Shown one piece after another: positions 3,445-26,857 of a stretch of 32,000 nucleotides of DNA. Below the pieces are notes generated by a model. It did no database searches. It saw only the letters and a program-made list of their open reading frames with translations, and was not told where the DNA came from. The DNA comes from Planctomycetota bacterium (GTDB lineage Bacteria; Planctomycetota; UBA1135; GCA-002686595), in the NCBI GenBank assembly GCA_030746555.1, contig JASLMK010000072.1:12257-44256 (forward strand). Direction: 5' to 3'. Position numbers and translations under genes: made by a program. Numbering within the stretch: position 1 is the first letter of the stretch; the number at the start of each line of letters is the position of its first letter.

Positions 3445-4890
3445 TCAGTCGCCGGTGTAGCCGAGGGCCTCGAGCTGGTCGAGGGTCTCCTGCTTCACGC
3501 CCGTGGCCTGCTGTTGTTCGTGGCCCAGCTTCTCCACGACGTCGTGCCACTCCAGGGCGAACCGGGCCAGCCTCGCCGCCAACTCTGGGAGCTCGACGCT
3601 GAGGTCGGCCTGCTCCCGGGGGTCGGTCCGGTAGGAGAACAGCTCGACACGCCTGGTCTTGCGGCTCGTCAGCATGTGGTGGGTGTCGGTCGCGACGGCG
3701 ATCTGGCGCCCGTAGAAGGGCGACTCGGAGATGGCGACCTGCTCGCTCGCGGGGGCGGAGCCGTCGATCAGCGAGAGTAGGCTGGCCCCGTCGATGTCCT
3801 CCAGCGCGTCGAGCTCGAGGACCTCGAGGATCGTGGGGAGCACGTCGATCGACTCCACCACGGCCTCGACCGAGCCGCCCTCACGCTGGCCGGGGAGCTT
3901 CAGGACCAGGGGGATGCGCGAGACCGGCGTGAAGAGCTTGTCGTGCATGACCCCGCCGTGGTCGAAGAACTCCTCGCCGTGGTCGGACAGGAACACGATC
4001 AGCGCGTCGTCGTAGAGCCCGCGCTCCTTCAGGCCGTCGAGGAACTCCCCCAGCCAGGTGTCCACGTAGCGGATGCCGCCGTCGTAGAGACCTTCGACGT
4101 AGGCGAGCTGCTCCGCGCTCAACCGAGGAGGATCCTCGTCGTGGCGGCCCTCCCAGATGCGCAGCAGCTCCGGGCCGAGGAGCGCCCGGAACTCCGGGCT
4201 CGGCATGGCCTGCGGATCGACGAACATCGACCGGTACGGTTCGGGGGAGCTGTCGTAGGGCGTGTGGACGTCGTAGGTGTGGACGAGGAGGAAGAAGGGA
4301 TCGTCGTCGGCGAGCCGCGTGCCCAGCCACTCCTCGACCCGGGGACCGATCGCCGCGAGGCCCCCGGCCCGGTCATCGTAGACGTCGAACCCGCGCTCGA
4401 GCCCGTAGCCCGACCCCATGTAGCCACCGTCGACGAAGGCCGCGGTGTCGTAGCCGGCCTCGGAGAGCACCTCCGCCAGGGGCACGACGGCGTCGGGCAG
4501 GGCCGCCTTGTCGTCGATGCGGCCGTGGCGCGTGGGGTAGAGGCCCGTGAAGATCGAGGTCTGGGAGGGGACGGTGAACGGAGCCTGGGCGAAGGCCCAG
4601 GCGAAGGCGGTCGCCTCGGCGGCGAAGGCGTCGAAGCGCGGGCTCGTCTCCCGCTCGTAGCCGTAGTGGCCGAGGCGGTCGGCGCGCAGGGTGTCGACGT
4701 CGATGACGATCACCGGGTGGGCGGTGCCGAGCGCGCGGCGGGGCATCCACTCTTCGCGCATCGCGAAGGCGATGAGGGACAGGCCGGCTACACCGACCGC
4801 GACCGCCAGGAGTCCCTGCCGGCTCACGACGCGCCTCCGGCGCTGCCGGGGTGCCGTTGGATGGGCGAAATCGGCATCTCCACCGTCCAT
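3445..4890 (-). CDS. Sulfatase-superfamily (alkaline-phosphatase fold) hydrolase/transferase, N-terminally membrane anchored, lacking the C/S-x-P-x-R formylglycine motif
   Basis: Sulfatase-family blocks: VIVIDVDTLRADRLGHYGY, PFTVPSQTSIFTGLYPTRHG, FFLLVHTYDVHTPY and VFLSDHGEEF. I chose the start at ATG 4890 (MDGGDADF...RRRRVVSRQGLLAVAVGVAGLSLIAFA; Arg cluster plus TM helix) rather than the track start at 5055, whose extra 55 aa are Pro/Ala/Arg-rich. Confidence 0.85.
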   Translation of the reverse strand: MDGGDADFAHPTAPRQRRRRVVSRQGLLAVAVGVAGLSLIAFAMREEWMPRRALGTAHPVIVIDVDTLRADRLGHYGYERETSPRFDAFAAEATAFAWAFAQAPFTVPSQTSIFTGLYPTRHGRIDDKAALPDAVVPLAEVLSEAGYDTAAFVDGGYMGSGYGLERGFDVYDDRAGGLAAIGPRVEEWLGTRLADDDPFFLLVHTYDVHTPYDSSPEPYRSMFVDPQAMPSPEFRALLGPELLRIWEGRHDEDPPRLSAEQLAYVEGLYDGGIRYVDTWLGEFLDGLKERGLYDDALIVFLSDHGEEFFDHGGVMHDKLFTPVSRIPLVLKLPGQREGGSVEAVVESIDVLPTILEVLELDALEDIDGASLLSLIDGSAPASEQVAISESPFYGRQIAVATDTHHMLTSRKTRRVELFSYRTDPREQADLSVELPELAARLARFALEWHDVVEKLGHEQQQATGVKQETLDQLEALGYTGD

Positions 4891-5758: not shown

Positions 5759-8455
5759 ATGGGCGACGCCATCCTCGACATGCGGAACACTCCCCAGGCG
5801 GCGGCGCTGATGGGCGGCAAGGGGTCCAGCCTGTACGAGCTGGCCCGCGGCGGGCAGCCGGTGCCGGCGTGGTTCTGCGTCAGCGCGCGGGTCTGCGCGG
5901 AGCGCCTCGCCCCTCTCGCCGAGCGCGCCGGCGCCCTCCTCGCTCGCCTCGATCCCGCGCGACCCCAAGGGGTGCGCACCGCGAGCGCGGAGCTCCTGGA
6001 GACCTCGGCGGCCCTGCCCCTGGCCGGGGAGGACCGGCGGGCGATCGAGGAGGCCCTCGGCGACCTGGATGGCGAGCGCTTCGCCGTGCGCTCCTCCGCC
6101 GTCGGGGAGGACGGGAGCGCCGACTCCTTCGCCGGGCAGCTCGAGACCTACCTCCACGTGCGCCGCGAGGATGTGGTCGAGCGCGTCACCGACTGCCAGG
6201 CCTCGGCCTTCACCGCGCGCGCCCTCGCCTACGGGAGGGAGCGCGGCCGCACGCCCGGTCCCGTGGCCGTCGTCGTCCAGGAGATGGTCGCCAGCCGCTC
6301 CGCCGGGGTCCTGTTCACGGCCAACCCCGCCGGGAGCCTCGACGAGCTGGTCGTCGTGGCCGCCTGGGGCCTGGGGGAAGGGGTGGTCGGCGACCTGGTC
6401 GAGTCGGACACCTACATCTACGACCGTCTCACCCGGGCCTGGTCCCGCTCCGTCGGCTCCAAGCGTTCTCGCGTGGTGCTCGACGAGGAAACGGGCACGG
6501 GCACCTGCGTGCGTCCCCTGCCCGAGTCCCTGAGGGAGGGGCCGGTCCTCGACGACGACCAGCTCGAGGCCCTGCGCACCGCGGCCGAGGCGATCGAGGC
6601 CCTCTGCGGCCCCGGCCAGGACGTCGAGTGGGCCTTCGACGAGCGGGGTCGGCTCGCGATCACCCAGAGCAGGCCGATCACGACCCTGCCGCGGGGCGAG
6701 CTGTCGATCTTCGACGCGAGCAACATCGTCGAGAGCTACCCGGGGATCACCTCGCCCCTGACCTTCTCCTACATCCTCGCCGCCTACGCGCGCGTCTTCC
6801 GCGACATGGCCCGCCGCCTGGGCGTGCCTCGCCGCGAGCTCGAGCACAACGACGACCTGTTCGAGAGCATGCTCGGGCACCTCGACGGGCGCGTGTACTA
6901 CAACCTCGGGAGCTGGTACCGCCTGTTCCTGCTGGTCCCCTTCACCGGCTCCTACCTCGGCGTCTGGGAGGAGATGCTCGGGATCCGCAACCCGCGGCCC
7001 GCCTCGGCCCGCGCGCGGCGCAGCGCCGTCTTGCGCGACCTGCCCCGGGCGGCCCGGGCGGCGGGGAGCTTCACCTGGAACCTGCTGCGCCTCACGCCCC
7101 GCATGGAGCGGCTGCGGCGGCGCTTCGCGGGGATCGAGCGGCGCTTTCGCCGCACCGACCTCGACGAGCTCGACACCGTCGCCCTCGCCCGCCTCTACCG
7201 CTCCCTCTCCCTGGAGCTGATGGACGGCTGGGACCTCACCCTGCTCAACGACGCCTACGCGATCATCGGCTCGGGCCTCGTGCGCGCCCAGCTCGAGCGT
7301 GCCGGGGCGGAGGCCGACGCCTTCGGGGCCCTGATGGCGGGCGAGGAGGACCTCGAGAGCGCCCGGCCCGCCCACAGCCTCGCACTCCTCGCGGACGCGG
7401 CCCGCGGGGACGAGGCGCTGCTCGAGGCGCTCGCCGCGGCGGCAGAGGCCGAGGACGCCGCCGTCGCCCGAGCCTTCCCCGACCATCCCGACTTCGCCCG
7501 CCGCTTCGAGGAGCACCTCGAGCGCTGGGGCGACCGCCACCTCGCCGAGCTGAAGCTCGAGTCCCCCAGCCTGCGCCGCCACCCGCGCCTGTTGGCCGGC
7601 CTCATCCTGCGCCAGGCGCGCGGCGGCCACGACGCGGCCCAGGCGGCGGCCCACCGCAAGCGCCTGCGGGAACGAGCCCGCGCCGAGTGCGCCCGGGCCT
7701 TCGCCGGCGCCCCCCACCGCCGGGCGCTCTTCGCCGTCGCCCTCCGCCTCGCCCGGCGCTCGGTGCGCTACCGCGAGAGCTCGCGCATGGACCGGGCGCG
7801 GGGCTTCGGCATGATGCGCGAGGTGTTTTGGGCCATGGCCGAGCGCCTCGTCGCCGAGGGCGCCCTCGAGGCCGCCGACGACGTGTTCCTGTTGACCGTC
7901 GACGAGCTCCTGGGCTTCGCCACCGGTAGCGGGGTCGACGCCGAGCTGCGCGCCATCGTGGAGCGCCGGCGGGCCGAGGCCGCGGCCCGCCCCGACGGTG
8001 GCCCGGCGCGCGAGCGCCTGCGCTTCCGCGGCACGGTGGGCGCACACCCCTCCGCGACCGGCGTTGCCTCCCGCACACAGCCTGCCGACGCTCCCGCCCC
8101 GGGCGACGCCGGCACGCTCGAGGGCACGGGCTGCTCCGCGGGCACGGTCACGGCCGAGGCGGTCGTCGTGCGCGATCCCTCCCAGGCCGCCGACACGGCC
8201 GGCAAGGTGCTCGTGGCGGAGATGACCGATCCCGGCTGGGTGTTCCTGATGATGTCCGCGGCGGGGCTGGTCGTCGAGCGCGGCAGCCTGCTCTCCCACA
8301 CCGCCATCATCGGCCGCGAGCTGGGGGTGCCGACCGTGGTCGGCGTGCCCGGCGCCTGCTCGCTCATCGGCGACGGCGACCGCGTCGAGCTCGACGGGCG
8401 CAGCGGCAGGGTGCACGTGTTCGCCCGCGCCCGCGACGAGGAGGCCGAGGGATGA
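5759..8455 (+). CDS. PEP-utilizing three-domain kinase (PpsA/PPDK N-terminal ATP-grasp + helical middle domain + C-terminal phospho-His swivel domain), rifampin-phosphotransferase-like architecture (copy 1)
   Basis: Starts at ATG 5759 (MGDAILDMRNTPQAAALMGGKGSSLYEL). ATP-grasp blocks: FAVRSSAVGEDGSADSFAGQLETYL, VAVVVQEMVASRSAGVLFTANP, WGLGEGVVGDLVESD and DVEWAFDERGRLAITQSRPIT. C-terminal mobile domain: GKVLVAEMTDPGWVFLMMSAAGLVVERGSLLSHTAIIGRELGVPTVVG (catalytic His in LSHTAI). An alternative start lies at 5780. Confidence 0.85.
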   Translation: MGDAILDMRNTPQAAALMGGKGSSLYELARGGQPVPAWFCVSARVCAERLAPLAERAGALLARLDPARPQGVRTASAELLETSAALPLAGEDRRAIEEALGDLDGERFAVRSSAVGEDGSADSFAGQLETYLHVRREDVVERVTDCQASAFTARALAYGRERGRTPGPVAVVVQEMVASRSAGVLFTANPAGSLDELVVVAAWGLGEGVVGDLVESDTYIYDRLTRAWSRSVGSKRSRVVLDEETGTGTCVRPLPESLREGPVLDDDQLEALRTAAEAIEALCGPGQDVEWAFDERGRLAITQSRPITTLPRGELSIFDASNIVESYPGITSPLTFSYILAAYARVFRDMARRLGVPRRELEHNDDLFESMLGHLDGRVYYNLGSWYRLFLLVPFTGSYLGVWEEMLGIRNPRPASARARRSAVLRDLPRAARAAGSFTWNLLRLTPRMERLRRRFAGIERRFRRTDLDELDTVALARLYRSLSLELMDGWDLTLLNDAYAIIGSGLVRAQLERAGAEADAFGALMAGEEDLESARPAHSLALLADAARGDEALLEALAAAAEAEDAAVARAFPDHPDFARRFEEHLERWGDRHLAELKLESPSLRRHPRLLAGLILRQARGGHDAAQAAAHRKRLRERARAECARAFAGAPHRRALFAVALRLARRSVRYRESSRMDRARGFGMMREVFWAMAERLVAEGALEAADDVFLLTVDELLGFATGSGVDAELRAIVERRRAEAAARPDGGPARERLRFRGTVGAHPSATGVASRTQPADAPAPGDAGTLEGTGCSAGTVTAEAVVVRDPSQAADTAGKVLVAEMTDPGWVFLMMSAAGLVVERGSLLSHTAIIGRELGVPTVVGVPGACSLIGDGDRVELDGRSGRVHVFARARDEEAEG

Positions 8456-9396
8456 GCCGCCTGCGCGGGATCGCGGCCTTCCTGTGGGAGATGTGCCCTC
8501 CCCACCTGCTGCTGCCCCTGGGCGTGGCCCGCTTCTGCGCCGTCTACCTGGGCCTGCAAGCCCTGGCGGGATCGGACGCCCTCGTCCTCGGGCCGCGCGC
8601 GGTCACCGGCACCGCCAGCCTGATCCTGTTCGTCGTCCTCGCCCGGGTCTACGACGAGTTGAAGGACGCGGACACCGACCGCCGCCTGGCCGCCACCGGC
8701 GATCCGCGCACGGCCTCGCGCCCCATCGTGCGCGGCATCGTCGACGAGGCCGACCTGCGCGCGCTGCGCAACGTCCTGATCGTCGCCCTGATCGCCCTCC
8801 AGCTCCCCGGCGCCGCCCCCCTGCCCCTGGCCGGGTTCGCCCTCGCCCTGGCCGCGTTCTGGCTCTCGTCGAACTGGTTCTTCTGGCCGGCGGTCGAGCG
8901 CCACCTCCTGCTGGCGCTGCTGACGACCAGTCCGCTCACCCTCTTCGTGCTGGCCTACGTCGCGACCCTCTTCGCCGCCGACTTCGGCGCCGGGCGTCTG
9001 GGCGCCTCGACGGCCCTGCTCCTGTTCGGCCTCTACGCGCCCATGCTCGCCTGGGAGACCTCGCGCAAGGTCCGCGTCCCCGCCGACGAGACCGACTACG
9101 AGACCTACACCAAGACCCTCGGGCCGCGCCGGGCGCTCGCTCTGCCGATCACCTTCGCCCTGGTGACCGTCGCGCTCCTCGCCTCCTTCGCAGTCCGCGT
9201 CGGCCTGCCCGCACCCTTCTTCTGGGCCCTGGGGAGCGCCGGCGCCCTGTTCGTCGGCGCGTGCCTGGCCTTCGTGATCGCCCCCAGCCGCCGCCGCGCC
9301 CACCTCGAGCCCTTCGCCCAGGTCTTCCTGCTCGTCGCCGACTTCGGCCTGGCGATCGGTCTGGCCTGCGCCTTCTCCGTGACCTGGGCGGCCTGA
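8452..9396 (+). CDS. UbiA-family integral-membrane prenyltransferase
   Basis: 314 aa, polytopic and hydrophobic. The first Asp-rich motif and following loop, YDELKDADTDRRLAATGDPRTASRPIVRGIV, compare with UbiA NDxxDxxxD...RTxNRPLxSG. A second acidic region reads WETSRKVRVPADETDYETYTKTLG. The ATG overlaps the upstream stop (ATGA at 8452-8455). Confidence 0.8.
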   Translation: MSRLRGIAAFLWEMCPPHLLLPLGVARFCAVYLGLQALAGSDALVLGPRAVTGTASLILFVVLARVYDELKDADTDRRLAATGDPRTASRPIVRGIVDEADLRALRNVLIVALIALQLPGAAPLPLAGFALALAAFWLSSNWFFWPAVERHLLLALLTTSPLTLFVLAYVATLFAADFGAGRLGASTALLLFGLYAPMLAWETSRKVRVPADETDYETYTKTLGPRRALALPITFALVTVALLASFAVRVGLPAPFFWALGSAGALFVGACLAFVIAPSRRRAHLEPFAQVFLLVADFGLAIGLACAFSVTWAA

Positions 9397-9401
9397 GGGC
9401 G

Positions 9402-10526
9402 ATGAGCGAGGCCGTCCGCGACGCCGCGTTCTTCGACCACGTGGGCTACTCCACGGTCTGGGAGGACGAGCGCTGCATCGACGAGGGCCTGCGACCCGCT
9501 CCCGGCGAGCGCGTGCTCTCGATCACGTCCGGCGGAGACTTCAGCCTGCAGTTCCTGCTCGCCGACGTGGCCTCGGTCCTGTCGGTCGACTTCAACCCGC
9601 GCCAGGACTTCCTGCTGCAGCTGAAGGTCGCCGCCCTCGCCGAGCTGTCCCACGACGAGCTGTGGGGCTTCTGCGGGCTGGAGAGCTGCGGAGAGCGCGG
9701 TGGCCTCTACGCGCGCCTGCGGCCGCGGCTGGCCGCCGGGCCCCGCGAGTACTGGGACCGCCGCGAGCGCGCGATCCGGCGCGGGTTCCTCTTCGACGGC
9801 AAGCAGGACCGCTTCCTCCACCGGGCCGGTTCGCTGGTCACCGCCGCCCTCGGCCGGCGTGCGGTCGAGCGCTACTTCACGAGCACCACCCTCGCCGAGC
9901 AGCGCGCCGCCATCGGGCCGGGGCTGCGCGGCTGGCGCTGGCGCGCCCTGGCCCGGGTCCTGTTCAGCCGCGCGGTCTTCAACCGCGCCTTCGACCGCGC
10001 CCACTTCCGCTACGCGACGCGCGAGCACCACCCGGCGACGCTCCTGCGCGAGCAGGTCGAGGGCGTCTTCCTCGACCTCCCCGCGGTCGAGAACTACCCC
10101 TACCACTGGGCCTTCCGCCGGGGCTTCCGCGACCGCGAGCACTGCCCCGCCTGGCTGCGGGCGTCGGCCCACCCCACCCTGCGCGACCGCCTCGGGCGGC
10201 TCACCTCGACCGTGGGCGACCTGGCGGAGGTCCTCGAGGAGCTCCCCGAAGACTCCGTGGACTGCTTCCACTTCTCCAACGCCTTCGACTGGGTCAGCCT
10301 GGCGCAGTTCGTGGTCCTGATGAGCGAGGTCGTGCGCGTCGCCCGTCCGGGGGCGCGCCTGTGCTACTGGACGAACCTGTTCAACACGCACCGCGAGCTC
10401 GACCTCGCCATCGGGGCGTTGGGCGGGATCCGGGAGGAGCGCGACCTCGCGGACGGGATCCACCGCGCCTCCCGCACCCCCGGCTACTCCTCCTGCACGC
10501 TGGGGACGATCACGAAGGAGTGGTAG
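9402..10526 (+). CDS. DUF3419 / BtaA-like S-adenosylmethionine 3-amino-3-carboxypropyl transferase
   Basis: Starts at ATG 9402, 5 nt after the UbiA stop. YSTVWEDERCIDEGL, VLSITSGGDFSLQFLL, VLSVDFNPRQDFLLQLK and DCFHFSNAFDWV match my recollection of the BtaA/DUF3419 pattern (Y.q.WED, SaGcN.L, DlNpaQ..LleLK, lSn..dW). Confidence 0.8.
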   Translation: MSEAVRDAAFFDHVGYSTVWEDERCIDEGLRPAPGERVLSITSGGDFSLQFLLADVASVLSVDFNPRQDFLLQLKVAALAELSHDELWGFCGLESCGERGGLYARLRPRLAAGPREYWDRRERAIRRGFLFDGKQDRFLHRAGSLVTAALGRRAVERYFTSTTLAEQRAAIGPGLRGWRWRALARVLFSRAVFNRAFDRAHFRYATREHHPATLLREQVEGVFLDLPAVENYPYHWAFRRGFRDREHCPAWLRASAHPTLRDRLGRLTSTVGDLAEVLEELPEDSVDCFHFSNAFDWVSLAQFVVLMSEVVRVARPGARLCYWTNLFNTHRELDLAIGALGGIREERDLADGIHRASRTPGYSSCTLGTITKEW

Positions 10527-10531
10527 AGCGA

Positions 10532-11446
10532 TTGGACGGACGGACCGAGAGCACCTTCGTCGACCGCGAGAGCGGCGAGCCGTGCACCGAGCACGTCCAC
10601 CGCGGCGGGTTCTTCCGCTGGCTGTACGGTTCGCGCGCCGGACGCGCGCTGCGGGGTTGGCTGACCGGCTCGCGGCTCCTCCACCGCGCCCTCGCCCGCT
10701 TCGCCGACTCGCCGGCCTCGCGGGTGTGCATCCGCCGCTTCAGCGTGCTCGCCGGCGTGGACACCGACGAGGCCCTCGAGCCCGAAGGGGGCTATCGCAG
10801 CTTCAACGACTTCTTCGGCCGCCGCCTGCGTCCGTCCTGCCGCCCCCTCGATCCCGACCCCCAAGCGCTCCTCTCCCCCGGCGACGGCAAGCTGTTCGTC
10901 GCGGGCGACCTGGGCAGCGAGGCGCGCCTCTCGATCAAGGGCTGCTCGTTCACCGCGGCCGAGCTCCTCGCCAAAGCGGCGGACGCGGCACCCTACGCGG
11001 GAGGCAGCGCCGCCGTCCTGCGCTTGTACCTCCCCGACTACCACCGCGTCCACTTCCCCGCCGACGGCGTCCTCGATCCTCCCCGGGAGGTCCTCGGCCG
11101 CTACCTGTCGGTGACCCCGTTTCCCGGCAACGACGAGCCCTTCTACTTCCGAAACCACCGCGTCGTGAGCGTGCTCCGAAGCGACCGCTTCGGGCGCATC
11201 GCCATGGTCGAGGTCGGGGGCTTTCTGATCTCCAGCGTGCGCCCCCTGTGCGCCGCAAGACAGCGCGTGCGCCGCGGCGACGAGAAGAGCCTGTTCGCCT
11301 TCGGCGGCTCCACCCTCGTGCTGTTGGCCGAGCCCGGCCGCGTGGTCTTCGATGCCGACCTCCTCGAGCACTCCGCCCGCGGCCTGGAGACCCGCGTGCG
11401 CCTGGGGACGCGCATCGCCCGCGCGGGGCGCGCCGGCTCAGCCTAG
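10532..11446 (+). CDS. Phosphatidylserine-decarboxylase-family (pyruvoyl-dependent) decarboxylase proenzyme
   Basis: PSD-family blocks: FNDFFGRRLRP, LLSPGDGKL, VLRLYLPDYHRVHFPADG, MVEVGGFLISSV and the self-cleavage-type FAFGGSTLVLL (G-S-T). No ATG is available. The TTG at 10532 lies 11 nt after GAAGGAG (10514-10520). An alternative GTG at 10520 overlaps the upstream gene. Confidence 0.8.
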   Translation: MDGRTESTFVDRESGEPCTEHVHRGGFFRWLYGSRAGRALRGWLTGSRLLHRALARFADSPASRVCIRRFSVLAGVDTDEALEPEGGYRSFNDFFGRRLRPSCRPLDPDPQALLSPGDGKLFVAGDLGSEARLSIKGCSFTAAELLAKAADAAPYAGGSAAVLRLYLPDYHRVHFPADGVLDPPREVLGRYLSVTPFPGNDEPFYFRNHRVVSVLRSDRFGRIAMVEVGGFLISSVRPLCAARQRVRRGDEKSLFAFGGSTLVLLAEPGRVVFDADLLEHSARGLETRVRLGTRIARAGRAGSA

Positions 11447-12538
11447 ATGCTTCTCGAAGACCGCGTAGGCGCGATCGGGGGGGCCGACCGCCGAGAGGAT
11501 GCTCGGCCCCTCGCCTACGAGCGCGCCGGTCGCGTGGGCGTAGCCGCCGCGAGCACAGAGCTCGAGGCCGTGGGCCATGACCTCGTAGATCAGGTTCGTC
11601 TTGCGGTGGGGCGGCATCACGCCGAACACGAAGAACACGACCCGGTCCCGCGGCGCCTCGGCCAGGGCGGCGAGGTCGCCCCCGTCGCCGTCGAGCTCGC
11701 CGAAGGCGCGCGCGAGATCGTGGTAGCCGAAGCTGAAGCCGGCGATCTCCCCGGTCGCGGGCACCTCCCAGCGGGTCAGGAACTCGGGTCGCGACAGCTC
11801 GAGCAGCGGCCCGAAGGCCTGACGGAACTCCGCCAGGTCGATCGGGGCGCAGTGGTAGTTCTCGGCGAAGCACTCCATGATCATCGGGTGCAGGAGCTCG
11901 AGCTGCTCGGCGAGGGAGGAGGCCGTCGCGTCGACCGGCAGGTACTCCCCCGCTCCCTCGGCGCGCCGGGAGAGGCCGGCGGAGACGGCGGCGCCCAGCC
12001 CGCCGAGGACCCGCCGGGGAAGATCCCAGCTGCGCCAGCTCGCGTGCGGCGCGAAGCCTGCGGACTCGACGAGGGCGCGGTAGTAGGCGGGGCAGCGTGG
12101 CTCGCCCAGAAACGGCTCCCGGTCGAAGCCGTCGGTCTGCAGGCGGTAGCCGCCGTAGACGCTGAGGTTCACCGGGCCGTGCACGGTCCGGCATCCCTCC
12201 CCCGCGAGCCACTCCTCAGCCGCCGCGAACAGGGCGGAGGCCACGGCGGGATCGTCGCCGGTCTCGAAGAAGCCGAAGTGTCCGGTGCCCGACTCCGCCA
12301 GGCCGTCGTCCGCCGAGGCGACGATGCGCCCGACGACCTCGCCCGCCCGGCGGCACAGGAAGGGGCGCGCCCGGCCGTGGCGGAAGAACAGGTTCTCGTC
12401 GGACAGCTGGGTGCGCACGCTCTCGCGCAGGGGCGGCACCCAACGGTGCTCTCCTCCGTAGATGCGCCAGGGGAGCTCGATGAATGCCTCCAGCTCGGCT
12501 CCCTCGCGGTCGATCGCGGTCACTTCCAGGGCATCCAT
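11438..12538 (-). CDS. GNAT-fold acyl-CoA N-acyltransferase-like protein (two-lobed, 366 aa)
   Basis: Starts at ATG 12538 and overlaps the upstream stop (TGATG). The N-terminus FIELPWRIYGGEHRWVPPLRESVRTQLSDENLFFRHGRARPFLCRRAGEVVGRIVA matches a widespread family usually annotated as GNAT N-acetyltransferase. The family assignment is from memory, and the acyl donor and acceptor are unknown. Confidence 0.7.
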   Translation of the reverse strand: MDALEVTAIDREGAELEAFIELPWRIYGGEHRWVPPLRESVRTQLSDENLFFRHGRARPFLCRRAGEVVGRIVASADDGLAESGTGHFGFFETGDDPAVASALFAAAEEWLAGEGCRTVHGPVNLSVYGGYRLQTDGFDREPFLGEPRCPAYYRALVESAGFAPHASWRSWDLPRRVLGGLGAAVSAGLSRRAEGAGEYLPVDATASSLAEQLELLHPMIMECFAENYHCAPIDLAEFRQAFGPLLELSRPEFLTRWEVPATGEIAGFSFGYHDLARAFGELDGDGGDLAALAEAPRDRVVFFVFGVMPPHRKTNLIYEVMAHGLELCARGGYAHATGALVGEGPSILSAVGPPDRAYAVFEKHLG

Positions 12539-15231
12539 CAGGGCGCCTCCTCTCTGGCTGTCCCGTCCTCGGGATGGACCCGGATCGTCCCCGCGTCGCC
12601 GTCCAGGGTCACGAGCGCGCCGTCGGGGAGCCTGGCGCACAGGTCCCGGACGGCCAGCACGGCGGGGATGCCGTACTCGCGAGAGATCACCGCAGCGTGG
12701 GAGAGCAGGCCGCCGGTCTCGGTCGCCACGCCCGCCAGCAGGCCGAAGCGCGGGGTCCAGCCCGGGTCGGTGTAGCGCGTGACGAGGACGTCCCCCTCCT
12801 CGAGGCGGTCGGCGTCGAAGATGTCGCGCACCACTCGGACACGGCCCGTCACCACGCCCGGGCTGCAGGCGACGCCCTCGAGCTTTGCTCCCGGGCCGGC
12901 CGGCGCGCCGGTGGCCGAGGCCCCGTAGCCCTCGCCGATCTCGTCGGGGTTGCGGTAGTGGCGGAAGGAGCGGTAGTAGAGACGGTTGCGCGCGACGAGG
13001 CGGGCGGCGTCCGCGGCGGTGAGCTCGCCCCTCGCCAGCCCCAACAGGTCGTCGAGCGCCAGGAAGAACACGTCGTCCACCTCGGCGAGGTCGCCGCCGC
13101 CCACCAACCGGCGGGCGACCTCCAGGGTGAAGCGGCGCACGAAGAAGTAGAAGCGCGTCGAGAGGTCGCGCAGCTCCTCCCGCCACCACAGGAACTCGCG
13201 CAGGCGGTCCAGCCTGGCCGCGAGGCCCCTGCGGCGATGGAAGGGCGCCAGGCGCAGCATGCGCTCGCGCTCGGCGAGGTAGGCCTCGTGGGCGCGGGCG
13301 TTCGCCCGCCGCGGGTCCGCCTCGTCCTCGAGCCCTAGCAGGTCCCGGCAGTGCTCGACCACGATACGCGGGGCCTCCCCGTAGCGCGGGACCGAGAGGT
13401 CGAGCTCGCGCGTGGCGTGGTGACGAGAGCGCCGCACCACCTCCGCCAGCTCACCCAGACAGTGCTCGTCGGAGCCGGCGAGCATGGCGCGCGTCAACTG
13501 GCCGTCGTCCTGGCTCTCCCACGCCGCCCGCGCGTCGACCGAGGCGCGGATCTTGCGGCTGACGTCCCACAGCTCGAAGTTGGGCAGGAGGTGCGAGACG
13601 TCGGTGAGCCCCGAGAACAGGGTCAAGAGGTCGACCTCGCCGCCGAGCCTGGTGAAGGCGCCCTTGGTCAGCGACTGCAGGTTGGAGTTGTTGTAGACGA
13701 GGGTGAAGTAGGTCCCCTCGCTCTGGCGGTAGTCCGGCCCCACCAGGGTCTCGTAGAGCGCGAGCAGCTCCTCGCGTCCCAGGGCCGCCGGATCGATCGC
13801 GTCCAGCACCGCCAGGCGCGCCTGTTGGCGCCGCCGGTGGGCCTCGAACCCGGCGCTCTGCTCGCGGAAGGCCCGCTGGAGCGCCAGGAACACGCGCGCC
13901 GCGTTCCACAGGGTCCGGGGAGTGAGCCGGGAGGTCCGACCGCGCCCCTCGTAGGCGACCTCGATCCCCAGCTCCTCGTCGAACTCGCGCTCGACGAAGC
14001 CGGGGATGGCGAGGAAGCACTGCTTGATCCGGGCCAGGTTCCAGTAGGGACGCCCGAAGAACATCTCGCCCCAGACGGTCTCGTCGTCGCGCCCCAACAG
14101 GCGCACGCCGCGCAGGTAGGCGGGCATGGTGCGCTCCAGGATCGAGTCGTAGAGCGACCACATGAACGGCGTGCAGACGGTCGACGAGACGCCGCCGTCC
14201 TTGAAGTCCGCGGTCGACCACTCGCCCTCGATCCCGCCGGTGCGGATAGCGGTGATCGGCCGGGCCTGCAGGAGGTACGGCTCCCCCTCCGCCCAGGCCC
14301 ACTCGATGTCGACCGGAAAGCCGTACTCGGCTTGGACCCCGACGGCGAGCTCGGCGAGCCTCGCGGCCTCCTCCGGCGACAGGACGGCGCGCTCCCGCCG
14401 CTCCTGCGCTAGGGGGACGGCGCGCACGAGGGCGGGAGGCTCCGCGCAGACCAGCGCGTGCTCCTGGTCCGCCGCCGTGCGCCCCACCTCGACTCGCCTG
14501 AACCAGTCGTAGCGCACCTGCTCGGGGGTCACGCTGCCGTCGACGAGCGCCTCGCCTAGGCCGAAGCAGGCCTCGATGACGACCTCGCGGTCGGCGCCGG
14601 TCACGGGATTGACCGTGAAGGCCACGCCGCTGCGCTCGGCGTCGACCAGCTCCTGCAGCACGACGGCGATCGCGAGGTCCGCCAGCGGGACGGCTCGATC
14701 GAGGCAGTAGGAGAGCACGCGCTCGTTGAAGGCCGACGCCCAGCACTCCCGGATCGCCGCGGCGACCTGGTCGAGGCCCTGCGCCCCTAGCACGGTCGTG
14801 TACATGCCGGCGAAGGAGACTCCGTGCAGGTCCTCCTTCGTACCGCTGCTGCGCACGGCGTAGCGCGCGCCCGCGGGCCGCTCTTGGAGGAAGGCCTCGA
14901 GGTCGCGGGCCAGGCCCTCGGGGAGCGGCGTCGAGACGATCGCCTCGCGGGCCTCGGCCGCGCGCGCGAGGCATCGCTCGCGATCAGGCGGTCCGCAGCG
15001 GCGCACGGCCTCGACCCGCTTCCCAAGCCCCCCGACATCGACGAACTGCTCGAAGCCTCCGGTCAGGACGACGGCGCCGGGCGGCACGCGAAGCCCCCAG
15101 GACTCCAGGCGCACGAGCCCCTGCGCCTTGCGGCCCGCCTGCTCCAGACGCGCGGGGTCCGCCGCGAGATCGGCGAAGGACGCGAGCTGCCCGCGGCCGG
15201 CCACGTGCCCGTCGTCAGTAGCTCGGCGCAT
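12538..15231 (-). CDS. PEP-utilizing three-domain kinase, rifampin-phosphotransferase-like architecture (copy 2, diverged paralog of 5759-8455)
   Basis: 897 aa. ATP-grasp blocks: YAVRSSGTKEDLHGVSFAGMYTTVLG, IAVVLQELVDAERSGVAFTVNP, FGLGEALVDGSVTPE and VDIEWAWAEGEPYLLQARPIT. C-terminal swivel domain: GDVLVTRYTDPGWTPRFGLLAGVATETGGLLSHAAVISREYGIPAVLAV. Confidence 0.85.
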   Translation of the reverse strand: MRRATDDGHVAGRGQLASFADLAADPARLEQAGRKAQGLVRLESWGLRVPPGAVVLTGGFEQFVDVGGLGKRVEAVRRCGPPDRERCLARAAEAREAIVSTPLPEGLARDLEAFLQERPAGARYAVRSSGTKEDLHGVSFAGMYTTVLGAQGLDQVAAAIRECWASAFNERVLSYCLDRAVPLADLAIAVVLQELVDAERSGVAFTVNPVTGADREVVIEACFGLGEALVDGSVTPEQVRYDWFRRVEVGRTAADQEHALVCAEPPALVRAVPLAQERRERAVLSPEEAARLAELAVGVQAEYGFPVDIEWAWAEGEPYLLQARPITAIRTGGIEGEWSTADFKDGGVSSTVCTPFMWSLYDSILERTMPAYLRGVRLLGRDDETVWGEMFFGRPYWNLARIKQCFLAIPGFVEREFDEELGIEVAYEGRGRTSRLTPRTLWNAARVFLALQRAFREQSAGFEAHRRRQQARLAVLDAIDPAALGREELLALYETLVGPDYRQSEGTYFTLVYNNSNLQSLTKGAFTRLGGEVDLLTLFSGLTDVSHLLPNFELWDVSRKIRASVDARAAWESQDDGQLTRAMLAGSDEHCLGELAEVVRRSRHHATRELDLSVPRYGEAPRIVVEHCRDLLGLEDEADPRRANARAHEAYLAERERMLRLAPFHRRRGLAARLDRLREFLWWREELRDLSTRFYFFVRRFTLEVARRLVGGGDLAEVDDVFFLALDDLLGLARGELTAADAARLVARNRLYYRSFRHYRNPDEIGEGYGASATGAPAGPGAKLEGVACSPGVVTGRVRVVRDIFDADRLEEGDVLVTRYTDPGWTPRFGLLAGVATETGGLLSHAAVISREYGIPAVLAVRDLCARLPDGALVTLDGDAGTIRVHPEDGTAREEAP

Positions 15232-18200
15232 CCTTGATCCGCCCCAGGGCGAAGCCGTGCTTGCGCGCCACTTCCATGATCGCCTCGACGCGCTCGATCG
15301 TGATCGGCCCGAAGCTGTAGTGCTCGTCGATCCCCTCCAGGCCCATCAGGAGCGACTCGGAGACGCAGGCGTGGGTCTCCCCGGTCGCCACGGTGACGCC
15401 GGGAATGCGGAAGTCCTCGTTGCAGGGGAGCTTCACGACGCCGCCGAGGATCACGGTCACGTCGGGCCGCTCGGTGCGCACGGAGGGGTCGGTGTCGGTA
15501 GGGACGGAGATGTCGCAGATCACGACCGGCCCGGGGCCGAGCATGGAGGGGAAGAGGACCGGCCCGGGATCGTTGGTCGTGCTGACGATGAGGGTGGCGT
15601 CGACGAGGTCGGTGAGGTCGCCGCTCACTCGCAGGGGCGAGCTCGCGCCCAGGGTGCGCTCCAGCTCGGCGAACAGCCAGGGGCCGAGGTCCGCGGGGGA
15701 CTCGCGGCCCTCCAGGAGGCGGAGGGCCGGCTCGGTGTCCGCCAGGGAGCCGGCGATGCCCGAGAGGGAGGCCCGCTGCCCCGTGTCGCAGCCGCGCAGG
15801 GTCTCGAAGGCCTCCTCGAGGATGCGCCCCGCCACGGCCCTCAGACGCCGGCGATGGGACGGGCGGCCGACCAGGATCATGCGCGGCACGTGCCGCGCCA
15901 GGAGGTCGCCGTAGACGCTGCCGATGTTGCCGAGGGCGCCGATGACGGCGGCGCACGCGGTGCCGAGGGCGATCCCTTCCTCCGCCGCGGTGCGCCGGAT
16001 CGACTCGAACCCCATGGCCACGGTCAGCGAGTTCCCCGAGGTCAGGGCCAAAGAGCCGGTGTTCTTCACGTCGGTGCAGTTGCCGGTGATGATCGACGTG
16101 AAGCCGCCGTAGCCCATGACCTGGCAGCCCTCGCGCTTGGCGAGGTCCACGGCGATCTCGATCTTCTCGTCGAGGAATCGATGGTTGCGCGCGCGCATGT
16201 GGGCGCCGATGGTCGCCGAGGACTCGAACAGGGCGATCAGCTGGAAGTCCGCCACGGCGCCGGCAGAGGAGCGGACGGTGATCACCGGCATCAGGAACGG
16301 ATCGATGATGTCCTTGAAACGGTCCATCAGCGCCTCGAGCTGCTCCTCGGTGAACCCCTCCAGGCCGGGGTCGAAGTCGAGCAGCTCGCGGGGGTGGATG
16401 AAGTGCCCGAGGAAGGCGACGCGGCGCCTCTCCGGCGGCGCCGACGGCGGGGGAGCCGGCCGGCGCCGATCGGCGATCGGCCCTTCGGTGCCAGGGGTCT
16501 CATCGCCCGCGACGAACCTCAGCAGCTCGTAGGTGTTCTGCTTCTCGATCGCCTCGCACAGGCGCCGCAGCCCCCCGATCAGCCGCTCGCAGTCCTGTGC
16601 GGAGACGCAGTAGGGCGGCTCGAGCCGCAGGGTGTCGCTGTTGGACAGAGTCGGGAAGACGCGCAGGCGGTGCTCGTGCAGCAGGTATCCGGCGACGACG
16701 TAGCCGAACAAGTGCTGCTGGCCCAGGGCGCGCAGGGTCGTGCACGCGGACTCCGCCTGGGAGCGGAGCTCGACGCCGATCATCAGGCCCGCTCCGCGCA
16801 CTTCGGCGATCACGCCTGGGAACTCGCGGCGCACGCCCTCGAGGCGTTCGAGAAGCTCCGCGCCGACGCGCTCGCAGCGCCCGTAGATCTCAGCGTCGCG
16901 CTCGAGCAGGTCGAGCGCCGCCACGGCGAGGGCCGCGGAGTGGCAGTCCTCGGCGAAGGTCGAGGTGTGGATGCGCCCGAATTCCTCGTCGTACTGGGCC
17001 GCGTCCAGGAGCAGCGCCGAGATCTTCGCCAGCCCGCCGCCCAGGCTCTTGGACAGGAGGTAGTAGTCGGCGACGACGCCGAGCTGCTCGGCGAACAGGA
17101 ACGTCCCGGTGCGCCCCATCCCGGTCTGGATCTCGTCGAAGATGAGCGGGAAGCCGGCGGCGTCGGCGACGCCCCGGCAGCTCTCCAGGAAGGCGGGAGG
17201 AACCGGGTGGATCCCGCCCTCGCCTTGGATCGGCTCGATGAAGAGCCCGGCTACGGTCACCAGCGGCATCGGTTCGAGGGCCAGCTCCTCGCCCGCGGGC
17301 CCGGCGCGGATCACCGGGCGGTAGAGGCACTGGGTCCGGCGGGCGACGATCCGCTCCAACGCCTCCTCGTCGAAGCAGGGCACGAACTCCGTCTCGACGC
17401 CGAAGCCGGCGAACGGTTTGCGGTACTCGTCGTGGTGGGTCAGCTGGACGGCGCCCGTGGTCTTGCCGTGGAAGGCGCGCTCCAGCGCCAGGAAGGCGGG
17501 CGCGGGCAGCTCGGCGAGGGTCCTCTGGTTGTGGGCATCGAGGCGCTCGAGGGCCTCGGCCACGGGTCCCTCGACCCCGGCGGGCTCCCCGGCGGTCCGG
17601 TGCACCAGGGTGCGCAGCTCCAGGACGGCGGTCGGCGGGTGTTCGGAGAGCTCCGCGGGCAGGGAGGGGCCACGCACGAGCTCGGCGAGCTCCTCGGCGA
17701 TCCCCAGGGACTCGAGGTCGGCCCGCCGGCGGATCCGTACGCCGTCCGCCCGCGCTCCGCGCACCCGCGCCCGCAGGCGGTTCCTCCAGACCAGGGTCGC
17801 GTGCTTGATGGCGCCCTCGACCGCCTCGGCGCCCGAGTTGGCGAGGGCCGTCAGGTAGCGCCGGCCGGTGCGCGCCGCCAGCATCTCCCCCAGGCGCTCC
17901 CCCACGTTGGCGGCCTCGGGCCGGGCGCTACCCTGGCTGTTGAAGGGCAGGCCAGCCGCCAGGGTCTCCCGGGCGCGACGGACGAGCTCGGGGTGGTTGT
18001 GCCCGAACAGGGCCGCCCCGAAGCCACCCACGAAGTCGCTGACCGCGACCTCGGCTCCGTCCTCGTCCCGATGGAACAGGCGCGCGCCCTCCCCGCGGTG
18101 GTAGGTCACGTCCATCCGCATCGCGCGCAGGCGCTTGCCGATCGAGGGCCGGCAGTGCTCGGTGTACTTGGCGCTGTCAGTCTGGGGCACGGGTTCCTCC

Positions 18201-18268
18201 GAGAGGATCCCGTCCTCAGCCCGAGACCGCGGTCTCCCCGAGCCGGCGGTGAGCCGGGACGGGGTCAT
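15215..18268 (-). CDS. Fusion protein: class-III (omega) PLP aminotransferase domain (N-terminal) + acyl-ACP-reductase (AAR/COG5322)-like NAD(P)-binding reductase domain (C-terminal)
   Basis: Aminotransferase blocks: GGFGAALFGHNHPEL, ANSGAEAVEGAIKHA, AFHGKTTGA, IEPIQGEGGI, LIFDEIQTGMGRTG and LLSKSLGGG (PLP Lys). After a Pro/Arg linker (about residue 600), the C-terminal ~400 aa (nt 15215-16423) align by eye to cyanobacterial Aar. Matches are FLGHFIHP (Aar LIGHLTS), GYGGFTSIITGN (ALGGFTSII), LTSGNSLTVAMG (FTTGNTHTAWV), AAVIGALGNIGSVYG (VAVVGATGDIGSAV), ACVSESLLMGLEG (ACFAEAMLLEFEG) and ITIERVEAIMEVARKHGF (ITIEKMEAIGEASVRHGF). An alternative start is GTG 18190, preceded by GGAGG 5 nt upstream. 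Confidence 0.85.
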   Translation of the reverse strand: MTPSRLTAGSGRPRSRAEDGILSEEPVPQTDSAKYTEHCRPSIGKRLRAMRMDVTYHRGEGARLFHRDEDGAEVAVSDFVGGFGAALFGHNHPELVRRARETLAAGLPFNSQGSARPEAANVGERLGEMLAARTGRRYLTALANSGAEAVEGAIKHATLVWRNRLRARVRGARADGVRIRRRADLESLGIAEELAELVRGPSLPAELSEHPPTAVLELRTLVHRTAGEPAGVEGPVAEALERLDAHNQRTLAELPAPAFLALERAFHGKTTGAVQLTHHDEYRKPFAGFGVETEFVPCFDEEALERIVARRTQCLYRPVIRAGPAGEELALEPMPLVTVAGLFIEPIQGEGGIHPVPPAFLESCRGVADAAGFPLIFDEIQTGMGRTGTFLFAEQLGVVADYYLLSKSLGGGLAKISALLLDAAQYDEEFGRIHTSTFAEDCHSAALAVAALDLLERDAEIYGRCERVGAELLERLEGVRREFPGVIAEVRGAGLMIGVELRSQAESACTTLRALGQQHLFGYVVAGYLLHEHRLRVFPTLSNSDTLRLEPPYCVSAQDCERLIGGLRRLCEAIEKQNTYELLRFVAGDETPGTEGPIADRRRPAPPPSAPPERRRVAFLGHFIHPRELLDFDPGLEGFTEEQLEALMDRFKDIIDPFLMPVITVRSSAGAVADFQLIALFESSATIGAHMRARNHRFLDEKIEIAVDLAKREGCQVMGYGGFTSIITGNCTDVKNTGSLALTSGNSLTVAMGFESIRRTAAEEGIALGTACAAVIGALGNIGSVYGDLLARHVPRMILVGRPSHRRRLRAVAGRILEEAFETLRGCDTGQRASLSGIAGSLADTEPALRLLEGRESPADLGPWLFAELERTLGASSPLRVSGDLTDLVDATLIVSTTNDPGPVLFPSMLGPGPVVICDISVPTDTDPSVRTERPDVTVILGGVVKLPCNEDFRIPGVTVATGETHACVSESLLMGLEGIDEHYSFGPITIERVEAIMEVARKHGFALGRIKDAPSY

Positions 18269-23469: not shown

Positions 23470-24522
23470 TCAGCCGCCCTCGTCCGCCAGGGCCAAGAGG
23501 GCCAGGGCGGTGGCGGCGCGGGAGAGGTAGTGCTTGCCGTCGCGGCGGGGGGAGCGGGTGGTCCAGGTGCCGTCGGCGCCCTGGCGGGCGCGCAGCCAGG
23601 CCAGGGCGCGGGCCACGGGGGCGTCGTCGGGAGACGCTCCGGTGCGCAGCAGCACGTAGGCGGCGAGGGCCGTGGGGTAGGCCTCGCTCTCGGCGGTCTG
23701 CGGCTCGCCGCCGTCTCGTTTCCAGTCGGGAGCCGCCAAGGAAGCCATCGACCAGCCGCCGTCGGCCTCGACCGCCTCGATCAGGCGCGTACGCCAGGCG
23801 GTACGGTCGGCGCGGGACGCGACCCGCGGCCAGGAGGCGGCGGCCCACAGGCGCATGGCGGCGTCGTGCAGGCCCGGAGGTGGTTGCTCGCGCAGGCCGT
23901 CGGCCAGCAGGCGCGCCGCGCGCCGGTCCGCCGCTCTCAGGCCGCCGGCCTCGCGCAGCTCGCCCAGGGCAACGAGCATCAAGGTCGGCCCGAAGCGCAG
24001 GTCGCTCTCGTAGGGCGGCCAGTTGCAGCGCAGCCAGTCCTCCCAGACGCCGTCGCTCCCCAGGGTCCCCCAGGCGTGGTCGAGGGCGCGCAGGGTGACC
24101 GGGTGCGCGGGCCCGCCCAGGCGCGCGTCGCTCAGGGCCAGGAAGGCCGCCGTCGACACCATCCCCTCGACGCTGCCGTGCTGCCCGTGGGGCTCGTCCT
24201 CGCCGTCGAGGAAGCGCGTCAGGTACTCGCGGGCGAAGGCCCGGCCCGGCTTCAGCTCCGCCGACTCCGGCGCGATCACGGGCAGGGCCGCGAGGGCCCA
24301 GCCGTTGGTGTGGCAGGAGACGCAGTCGCGCCGCTCCCCCCACTCCCGGGCCAGGCGGGCGAGGGCGGCGGCGCCACGACGGAGCTCCTCACCGTCGCCG
24401 CGGCCATCCGCGCACCCGACGCCCCGCCCCGCGGCGCGGCCGTCGACGCCTCCGCCGGACGCCAAGCCCAGGAGCACCGCGCAAGGAGCGAGGGCGAGGA
24501 ACACGACACGATGACCAGCCAT
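23470..24522 (-). CDS. Secreted protein with prenyltransferase/squalene-oxidase-like (alpha/alpha toroid) repeats and a CxxCH motif
   Basis: Starts at ATG 24522 (MAGHRVVFLALAPCAVLLGLASGGG signal). It has a heme-c type motif (RRDCVSCHTNGW) and terpenoid-cyclase-like repeat signatures (IEAVEADGGWS and LRARQGADGTWT). The fold assignment is tentative. Confidence 0.65.
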   Translation of the reverse strand: MAGHRVVFLALAPCAVLLGLASGGGVDGRAAGRGVGCADGRGDGEELRRGAAALARLAREWGERRDCVSCHTNGWALAALPVIAPESAELKPGRAFAREYLTRFLDGEDEPHGQHGSVEGMVSTAAFLALSDARLGGPAHPVTLRALDHAWGTLGSDGVWEDWLRCNWPPYESDLRFGPTLMLVALGELREAGGLRAADRRAARLLADGLREQPPPGLHDAAMRLWAAASWPRVASRADRTAWRTRLIEAVEADGGWSMASLAAPDWKRDGGEPQTAESEAYPTALAAYVLLRTGASPDDAPVARALAWLRARQGADGTWTTRSPRRDGKHYLSRAATALALLALADEGG

Positions 24523-26784: not shown

Positions 26785-26857
26785 AGCACGACAGCCTCCG
26801 CCCGAAGGAGATCACGCCCCGGCGAAACGCGGCGGCGCGCCGCGCGTATCTGCCAGC

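Follow-up and report, generated by a model that had tools for sequence, protein, structure and literature searches.

A recurrent seven-gene cluster in a Planctomycetota genome is a candidate pathway for an amine-headed envelope lipid

Several described pathways use enzymes of the kinds found in the gene cluster presented here. In the biosynthesis of microcin C, MccD puts a 3-amino-3-carboxypropyl (acp) group from S-adenosylmethionine (SAM) on a phosphate oxygen, MccE1 decarboxylates the product to an O-aminopropyl phosphate, and the GNAT MccE2 works on the resulting primary amine (PMC10491745, PMC9239234). BtaA, which together with BtaB makes the betaine lipid diacylglyceryl trimethylhomoserine (DGTS), moves acp from SAM to a membrane lipid. 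PtTamH converts acyl-acyl carrier protein (acyl-ACP) to a fatty amine in tambjamine biosynthesis (PMC9594044), PigE chemistry is a further precedent (PMC8341465), and in enzymes of the PigC/HapC type the substrate is phosphorylated through the histidine of a swivel domain (PMC13534948). In Escherichia coli, phosphatidylhomoserine is formed and decarboxylated to phosphatidylpropanolamine at low levels, a lipid for which m/z 154.03 and 210.05 were reported (PMC12221286). The seven genes studied in this work lie in a stretch of 32,000 nucleotides, the window from here on, of a Planctomycetota bacterium (GenBank assembly GCA_030746555.1, contig JASLMK010000072.1, positions 12,257 to 44,256 of the forward strand), with a G+C content of ~73%, which is identical to part of a contig of a metagenome-assembled genome (GCA_035092285.1). 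A previous reading of the same DNA from its letters only (the sequence-only reading) could place their enzyme combination in no characterised pathway. We found no paper describing the gene set, subscription-only literature being outside our coverage, and for a lipid head-group cluster the combination is unprecedented. We give about even chances to the general reading, in which the seven genes act as a single pathway whose product is a specialised envelope lipid carrying a primary amine in its head group, made by transfer of acp and decarboxylation.

The cluster consists of two convergent operons with hardly any space between genes, and a check of the open reading frames (ORFs) located all of them where the sequence-only reading had placed them, junctions included. 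On the plus strand come PEP1 (5759-8455, 898 aa), a phosphotransfer enzyme of the RPH/PigC type with ATP-grasp, substrate-binding and swivel-histidine domains; G2 (8452-9396, 314 aa), a divergent membrane prenyltransferase of the UbiA superfamily; G3 (9402-10526, 374 aa), a DUF3419 (BtaA-like) SAM-dependent acp transferase; and G4 (10532-11446, 304 aa), a pyruvoyl decarboxylase of the phosphatidylserine decarboxylase (PSD) family. On the minus strand are G7 (15215-18268, 1017 aa), a TamH-like fusion protein with a class-III transaminase at its N-terminus and a thioester reductase of the acyl-ACP reductase (AAR) type at its C-terminus; PEP2 (12538-15231, 897 aa), a second RPH/PigC-type phosphotransfer enzyme; and G5 (11438-12538, 366 aa), a tandem-GNAT acyltransferase. 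PEP1 and G2 share an ATGA overlap (8452-8455), G2 and G3 are 5 nt apart (9397-9401), and G4 may start at GTG 10520, overlapping G3 by 7 nt, or at TTG 10532, leaving a gap of 5 nt, the latter being the start picked by public gene callers. The convergent stop codons of G4 and G5 interlock at 11438-11446, the stop of PEP2 is coupled to the start of G5 through TGATG (12536-12540), and G7 and PEP2 overlap by 17 nt (15215-15231). Only two coordinates of the previous reading need adjusting: the GNAT gene occupies 11438-12538, its upper coordinate not being 12540, and G7 may start at 18190, as in public gene calls, which gives 991 instead of 1017 aa. Motif inspection and alignments found the catalytic motifs unbroken in all seven proteins, the second acidic motif of G2 being of unusual form. 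No RNA family was detected in the window with Rfam, and promoter and terminator scans of it stayed at background level. Six of the seven proposed family assignments hold, the seventh having been too vague; PPDK_N, PEP-utilizers, DUF3419, PS_Dcarbxylase and Aminotran_3 were recovered by profile searches, while UbiA, as well as Acetyltransf_1, fell below the cut-off and was confirmed by predicted fold.

A scan for DUF3419 proteins in 185,579 species genomes gave 290 relatives, of which the best 80 loci were analysed by tblastn, all-against-all clustering and hidden Markov models. The closest relative (L008) is also from Planctomycetota and has a DUF3419 protein 85% identical to G3. The expectation that the gene set would co-occur in other genomes was borne out in seven other loci: L008, L011 (Candidatus Methylomirabilis), L012 (Rifleibacteriota), L017, L020 and L038 (Desulfobacterales) and the metagenomic contig L090 hold all seven families, in four different gene orders and in metagenome-assembled genomes (MAGs) labelled as four phyla. 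Partial sets appear in L006, L009, L016, L019 and L021. Since the seven families recur in four gene orders across four labelled phyla, chance adjacency is excluded.

Three designs can be told apart among the 80 loci. Type A, seen in Aminicenantes, Acidobacteriota and Bacteroidota (L022-L025, L030, L031, L034-L036, L041-L048 and L055, at positions around 7.6-17 kb of each locus) and also in Gemmatimonadota, combines a YegS-family lipid kinase, DUF3419 and a tandem GNAT with a LysA-like decarboxylase dependent on pyridoxal phosphate (PLP), an aldolase-II/MtnB-like protein and a MacB-type ABC exporter. This design could turn a lipid phosphate into a lipid with an aminopropyl-phosphate head independently of cytidine triphosphate (CTP). 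Type B has a core of UbiA-like protein, PEP-type enzyme and DUF3419, often with an MMPL/SSD transporter and LolA-like, fatty-acid-CoA-ligase-like and HMG-CoA-reductase-like proteins and sometimes a GNAT, and comes from Riflebacteria/Ozemobacteraceae, Myxococcota, Chloroflexota, Trueperaceae, Sericytochromatia and others. Type C is the seven-gene set of the window. A type-B relative is present in a cultured Firmicute, Brevibacillus laterosporus B9 (NZ_CP011076.1, roughly 463.3-474.7 kb; L095, 3854-15242), in a stretch that is unannotated in the record and encodes an HMG-CoA-reductase-like protein, a UbiA-like protein, a PEP1-type enzyme, DUF3419, a 439-aa protein, a GNAT, an AMP-binding enzyme and a cytochrome P450. 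L091, a locus from a sequencing run, has nearly the same gene order, and the conserved 431-439-aa protein of these Brevibacillus-type clusters has no match in Pfam or the PDB. Two type-B contigs (L059 and L068) carry the labels of Klebsiella pneumoniae and Enterobacterales MAGs, likely by mis-binning; we know of no such cluster in Enterobacterales. A distant DUF3419 gene (L092, 3919-6936) adjoins an AurF-like di-iron N-oxygenase and an MMPL transporter.

It is in the exchange of enzymes between these designs that the logic of the pathway is most apparent. A kinase accompanies DUF3419 in 67 of the 80 loci, of the PEP type in 49 and of the YegS type in 18, and never both. Decarboxylases are found in 35 loci, either PSD (13) or a PLP-dependent enzyme of the ornithine/diaminopimelate type (22), again never together, and the same holds for TamH-like and HMG-CoA-reductase-like proteins (10 loci each). 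Because mutually exclusive, non-homologous enzymes fill each step, phosphorylation, decarboxylation and acyl-thioester reduction appear integral to one family of pathways. The idea that a BtaA-like enzyme and a decarboxylase together yield an aminopropyl group, already put forward from the sequence, is strongly backed by their co-occurrence and by the non-homologous replacement of the decarboxylase. The UbiA-like gene is present in 37 loci, every one of which has a PEP enzyme as well. The product is probably lipid-like, as had been supposed, given that related loci carry exporters (MMPL/SSD genes in 16, LolA-like in 11 and MacB in 19), lipid kinases and CarS/PssA-like genes. The HMG-CoA-reductase-like genes (L026, 11415-13037; L091, 5265-6563; L095, 3854-5314) score 320-345 against an NCBIfam equivalog cut-off of 442 and sit in clusters without other genes of the mevalonate pathway. 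We rejected a role as mere isoprenoid supply, since they occur with DUF3419 without UbiA (L026, L032 and L039) and exclude the TamH-like protein; they may instead reduce some other acyl-CoA to an alcohol, for instance by making a diol from a 3-hydroxyacyl-CoA, as a counterpart to amine formation by the TamH-like enzyme.

A variant without DUF3419 bears most directly on what G3 acts upon. Two apparently bacterial contigs (L089, 615-13151, and L093, 3-7372) hold orthologues of PEP1 (43-50% identity to the window), PSD (~40%), the tandem GNAT (~35%) and the UbiA-like protein (42%), plus an MMPL transporter, and the place of DUF3419 is taken by a CarS-like gene of the CDP-archaeol-synthase family and by a CDP-alcohol phosphatidyltransferase that matches archaetidylserine synthase/PssA best. 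Both genes show translational coupling with PEP1 in L093; L089 has a split PEP gene, a truncated GNAT and two inserted transposases. The CarS-like and archaetidylserine-synthase families are typical of archaeal lipid synthesis. The window has no phosphatidylserine or archaetidylserine synthase gene to feed G4, whereas these sister loci do. A route through cytidine diphosphate (CDP) depends on a lipid phosphomonoester and would provide PSD with a phospho-serine head group; therefore PEP1 would make a lipid phosphate and DUF3419 would be the SAM-dependent alternative to the CDP route. The simplest reading of this replacement is that the acceptor of DUF3419 is a lipid phosphate.

We can then outline how the seven proteins might work together. 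From what is known of their families, G7 would reduce an acyl-ACP thioester to the aldehyde and, by transamination, form a long-chain primary amine from it (a 3-hydroxyacyl substrate would yield an amino-alcohol instead), PEP1 and PEP2 would transfer the beta-phosphate of ATP via the swivel-domain histidine onto an oxygen of their substrate, G3 would take the acp group from SAM, G4 would decarboxylate alpha-amino-acid head groups and G5 would N-acylate. Gene context suggests the following sequence. Firstly, G5 would N-acylate the amine made by G7 and the UbiA-like enzyme add an isoprenoid chain, giving a hydrophobic scaffold that, with its N-acylated amine, may be two-tailed and ceramide-like. 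A PEP enzyme would then phosphorylate a free hydroxyl of the scaffold to a lipid phosphate, G3 would alkylate this phosphate with acp to a phospho-homoserine head group, and G4 would strip the carboxyl to leave O-(3-aminopropyl) phosphate, one carbon more than phosphoethanolamine. In the version of the window the backbone would be an N-acylated long-chain amine or amino-alcohol with an isoprenoid chain, not glycerol, and the sister lineage would arrive at an analogous ethanolamine head group through archaeal-type CarS and serine-transferase genes in Bacteria. This specific product, with an O-(3-aminopropyl) phosphate head (phospho-homoserine where the decarboxylase is missing) made without CTP on a non-glycerol backbone and flanked by an archaeal-type sister route, is a tentative proposal, which we consider clearly less probable than the general reading of an amine-headed lipid made by acp transfer and decarboxylation.

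A number of observations weigh against the pathway outlined above. We infer the order of the steps and the acceptor of G3 from gene context alone, and to our knowledge the only characterised DUF3419 enzyme, BtaA, alkylates the hydroxyl of diacylglycerol and not a phosphate. No kinase is found within 10 kb in 13 of the 80 loci, for example in Gemmatimonadota with DUF3419, an HMG-CoA-reductase-like protein and a PLP decarboxylase. The CarS/PssA variant comes from one lineage only (L089 and L093 are 71-84% identical) and so stands for one evolutionary event, with L089 interrupted by insertion sequence elements. The role of the UbiA-like protein and the need for two PEP enzymes are left unexplained, and PEP2 could be a condensing ligase of the PigC/TamQ type rather than a kinase. 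Homologues of G5 occur outside such clusters (L094) in what is a very large family, no transporter is encoded in the window, the Brevibacillus relative has a P450 that points to secondary metabolism, and the taxonomic labels of MAGs can be wrong.

Turning to the plus-strand proteins that would build the head group, G2 scores 27.7 bits with Pfam UbiA (PF01040), under the gathering cut-off of 34.2, and 82 bits with NF010118. Its family has no match in the PDB by sequence or profile, so a fold search was needed; the AlphaFold model (predicted local distance difference test, pLDDT, 94.7) gave as best Foldseek matches DGGGP synthase (6m31/7bpu) and ApUbiA (4od4), followed by 4tq3, UBIAD1 and Rv3806c, with template-modelling (TM) scores up to 0.63. 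As its orthologues pass the UbiA cut-off (49.6 bits in L021 and 56.8 bits in Brevibacillus) and the predicted model has the UbiA fold, we consider the membrane fold of G2 confirmed at the level of a model. The acidic motifs YDELKDADTD (8650-8679) and ADETDYETY (9082-9108) belong to the patterns YDELKDxxxD...RPIVxG and xEDETxYxTYS, invariant in 26 homologues, the second of which departs from the DxxxD form usual for the Mg-diphosphate-binding motifs of the superfamily. G3 matches DUF3419 with 187.5 bits and carries the SAM-site motif SITSGGD (9519-9539); it has only ~45 close homologues among 5.8 billion proteins, all of them metagenomic. G4 matches PS_Dcarbxylase with 144.9 bits and NF001941 with 234 (cut-off 371), and contains the self-cleavage site GGST (11303-11314) and DYHRVHFP (11036-11059). 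In 13 orthologues the serine of GGST and the histidine of DYHRVHFP are invariant and the aspartate of GDGK nearly so.

The DUF3419 membership of G3 would also fit an ether lipid without phosphorus, close to the phosphorus-free head group that the sequence-only reading had in mind. G3 would then use, as BtaA does, the hydroxyl of a lipid, be it diacylglycerol or an alcohol with a prenyl or alkyl chain, G4 would leave an O-aminopropyl ether, and the PEP enzymes would act elsewhere, for instance in supplying a prenyl/alkyl (di)phosphate donor to the UbiA-like enzyme, an arrangement that would suit the constant adjacency of UbiA-like and PEP1 genes (37 of 37). The kinase-free loci L026, L032 and L039, with DUF3419, a decarboxylase and an HMG-CoA-reductase-like protein, go in the same direction. 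We nevertheless regard it as unlikely, because one of two unrelated kinase types stands beside DUF3419 in 67 of 80 loci and because the swap for CarS-like and serine-transferase genes, in which the PSD orthologue is retained, requires a phosphomonoester lipid. In addition, annotated btaA genes share no more than 22-27% identity with G3 and adjoin a btaB methyltransferase and no kinase; for these reasons a btaAB betaine-lipid locus was rejected altogether.

The minus operon is where the amine would be made. G7 reaches 198 bits with Aminotran_3 in Pfam and 315 with PigE in NCBIfam. The best PDB matches of its transaminase half are the aldehyde-aminating enzymes CrmG (5dds) and PigE (4ppm), and the 403 aa at its C-terminus align with the N-domain of PigE and with the cyanobacterial AAR (6jzq). 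It has the PLP-lysine motif SKSLGGG (17033-17053), the GxxGxxG motif GALGNIGS (15917-15940) and the catalytic cysteine in HACVSES (15353-15373), in the domain order of PtTamH. Acyl-reduction and transamination had been proposed from the sequence, although the likeness to TamH/TamQ (PigE/PigC) had been missed; since the minus operon mirrors TamH/TamQ, the two reactions would together produce a primary amine with a long chain. The window has neither an AMP-binding nor an ACP gene (a dedicated TamA-type partner); AMP-binding genes adjoin the cluster in L011, L012 and L090. G5 lies just under the Acetyltransf_1 cut-off (20.5 bits against 20.7) and phmmer gave nothing meaningful against the PDB, but its AlphaFold model (pLDDT 91.4) has tandem GNATs as top Foldseek matches (2wpw, 5kf1, 7q3a, MshD and NMT; TM ~0.58) and resembles the clavulanate tandem GNAT, GlmA, MshD, NMT and the Fem/MprF synthase domains, which at the level of a predicted structure confirms G5 as a tandem GNAT. 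Its family counts 4170 representatives of clusters at 50% identity (E <= 1e-30). In L011 (14279-18025) and L012 (13470-17216), PEP2 (aa 21-861) and the tandem GNAT (aa 881-1247) form a single ORF of 1248 aa. A further protein of 780 aa (P0166) fuses an alpha-oxoamine synthase like serine palmitoyltransferase (SPT; NF047600, 470 bits) to a domain of the G5 family, which for this reason is tied to enzymes making long-chain amines. These fusions to PEP2 and to the SPT-like enzyme hint at a lipid amine as the acceptor of G5. Outside any such cluster, a 40%-identical homologue of G5 (L094, 2053-5831) is located between a transporter of the AI-2E family and a gene of the histone-deacetylase family. 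We take the latter family to include acetylpolyamine amidohydrolases, and the neighbourhood hints that the G5 family acts on polyamine-like amines.

A lipo-polyamine is conceivable on these grounds. G3 would place acp on the nitrogen of the G7 amine, G4 would leave an N-alkyl-1,3-diaminopropane and G5 would acylate one of its nitrogens, in a net aminopropyl transfer with the decarboxylation afterwards, as in the carboxyspermidine route, and the PEP and UbiA enzymes would decorate the product further. It draws on the TamH likeness of G7, which makes it a candidate primary-amine maker (PMC9594044), on the decarboxylases of the LysA/carboxyspermidine-decarboxylase fold in 22 loci and on the neighbour of the G5 homologue in L094. 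We find it improbable: the TamH-like protein is present in 10 loci and a decarboxylase in 35, so that the amine is not the general acceptor, the CarS/PssA substitution yields an O-phospho-linked serine and no N-linked unit, and the known substrates of PSD-family enzymes are amino acids that are free or linked by a phosphodiester.

Both PEP1 and PEP2 have the architecture PPDK_N, Rph_4th and PEP-utilizers in Pfam and NCBIfam. PEP1 scores 211 bits with PPDK_N, 78 with PEP-utilizers and 654 with NF004881 (equivalog cut-off 883); PEP2 scores 236 and 77 bits with the same two Pfam families and, far under the cut-offs, 344 with RIF_Ptrans_rph (999), 332 with RedH (1350) and 305 with PigC. The better of the two reaches 296 with the PEP synthase model (cut-off 598). 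Being so far under the RPH, PigC, RedH and PEP synthase cut-offs, they are, judging by sequence, members of the superfamily that belong to none of the characterised subfamilies. The closest solved structure in a PDB sequence search was the RPH of Listeria (5fbs). The swivel-domain histidine lies in LLSHTAIIGRE in PEP1 (8288-8320) and in LLSHAAVISRE in PEP2 (12676-12708), and this histidine (LSH motif) is the catalytic one as far as the family is known (PMC13534948). In a tree, the PEP enzymes split into the clades PEP1 and PEP2, the former adjoining UbiA/DUF3419 genes and containing all type-B PEP enzymes and the latter adjoining the TamH-like gene.

The pair formed by G7 and PEP2 would also be compatible with a diffusible metabolite, in which PEP2, in the manner of TamQ or PigC, condenses the amine of G7 with a phosphorylated carbonyl from the plus operon to an enamine or amidine alkaloid or antibiotic. 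The pair mirrors TamH-TamQ and PigE-PigC (PMC9594044, PMC13534948), the cluster is patchily spread over taxa, its relative in Brevibacillus laterosporus has a P450 and the window has no exporter gene. Yet no bipyrrole, polyketide synthase or nonribosomal peptide synthetase genes were found in the window, the PEP scores are far under the PigC and RedH cut-offs, and related loci hold lipid machinery (MMPL/SSD, LolA-like, YegS, CarS-like and PssA-like proteins and the membrane UbiA), making this a quite improbable outcome. Finally, that the genes are unrelated neighbours packed by genome compaction has next to no probability left, in spite of each family being found alone elsewhere (e.g., L005 or L094), given that four of the junctions have overlapping start and stop codons, that two of the genes are fused in L011 and L012, and that the recurrence of the set in four gene orders and distant lineages refutes it by synteny.

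Upstream of the cluster, a membrane-anchored protein of the sulfatase superfamily (3445-4890, minus strand) has TVPSQ where sulfatases have the CxPxR formylglycine motif, and because of this replacement it is probably no sulfatase but an LtaS/EptA-like phospho-transferase or hydrolase. A 688-aa protein (1224-3290, minus strand) has a weak AlgX-type SGNH domain (23.7 bits). The sequence-only reading had thought that these two might belong to the same envelope-lipid theme, but the sulfatase-like, AlgX/SGNH-like and nitroreductase genes upstream were rejected as cluster members, being kept in synteny only in L008, the closest relative (85% identical). Downstream, a squalene-hopene-cyclase-C-like repeat protein (23470-24585, minus strand; weak, 19.5 bits), a protein with Chlamydia-PMP-repeat/beta-helix (24772-26136, plus strand) and a fusion of redoxin and a haem-binding-like domain (26762-28636, plus strand) are apparently unrelated to the cluster.

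If the proposed aminopropyl-phosphate lipid is real, it would represent a new route to head groups like those of aminophospholipids, dependent on SAM and not on CTP. DUF3419 enzymes would gain a second function beyond betaine-lipid synthesis, the RPH/PigC-type dikinases, familiar from resistance to antibiotics and from pigment synthesis, would take part in assembling lipids, and TamH-type fatty-amine synthesis would enter membrane-lipid biology. The family of clusters covers many uncultured phyla, lipids of this kind could be of use as biomarkers, and the recurrent swaps of non-homologous kinases, decarboxylases and reductases offer a natural experiment in pathway evolution. The culturable relative of Brevibacillus laterosporus puts the question within experimental reach.

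Compared with the described systems, the locus shares a part with each of them. Rifampin phosphotransferase (RPH) has the same three-domain architecture as PEP1 and PEP2, but it is a stand-alone resistance enzyme, while here two paralogues are part of a biosynthetic operon and one of them is fused to a GNAT in some genomes. In TamH/TamQ and PigE/PigC, a transaminase-AAR reductase fusion adjoins an RPH-like histidine-phosphotransfer enzyme, as G7 adjoins PEP2, although the proteins of the window score far under the NCBIfam equivalog cut-offs and their neighbours are of the lipid type; a prodiginine or tambjamine cluster was rejected, as genes for the bipyrrole aldehyde MBC are not among the families of the window. 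With the CDP-dependent CdsA/PssA/Psd pathway and the archaeal DGGGPS/CarS/ASS/ASD pathway the window has in common the PSD-family step from amino acid to amine in the head group. DGGGP synthase of the archaeal pathway is closest to the G2 model, and the sister loci L089 and L093 have CarS/ASS-like genes. The window itself has no genes for CDP-activation or serine transfer, for which reason a canonical PssA/Psd pathway was rejected, and uses DUF3419 and SAM in their place, and the source of the phosphate appears to be a PEP-type kinase and not glycerol phosphate.

BtaA has the same DUF3419 fold as G3, with different partners. A BtaB-type methyltransferase, which adjoins DUF3419 in Rhizobium and Chondrinema, is absent from the window, and kinases, a decarboxylase, a UbiA-like protein and a GNAT are found here instead; the acceptor is more likely to be a phosphate than the diacylglycerol hydroxyl that BtaA uses. 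It is microcin C whose head-group logic is the same as that proposed here, on a peptidyl-nucleotide there and a lipid in our case. According to a review on microcin C, MccD is not homologous to BtaA/DUF3419. The microcin C decarboxylase is PLP-dependent, like that of the type-A loci, whereas the enzyme of the window is pyruvoyl-dependent and of the PSD type. By analogy, then, the cluster would work like a hybrid that joins the aminopropylation logic of microcin C, the decarboxylation of aminophospholipid synthesis and the amine-forming step of TamH.

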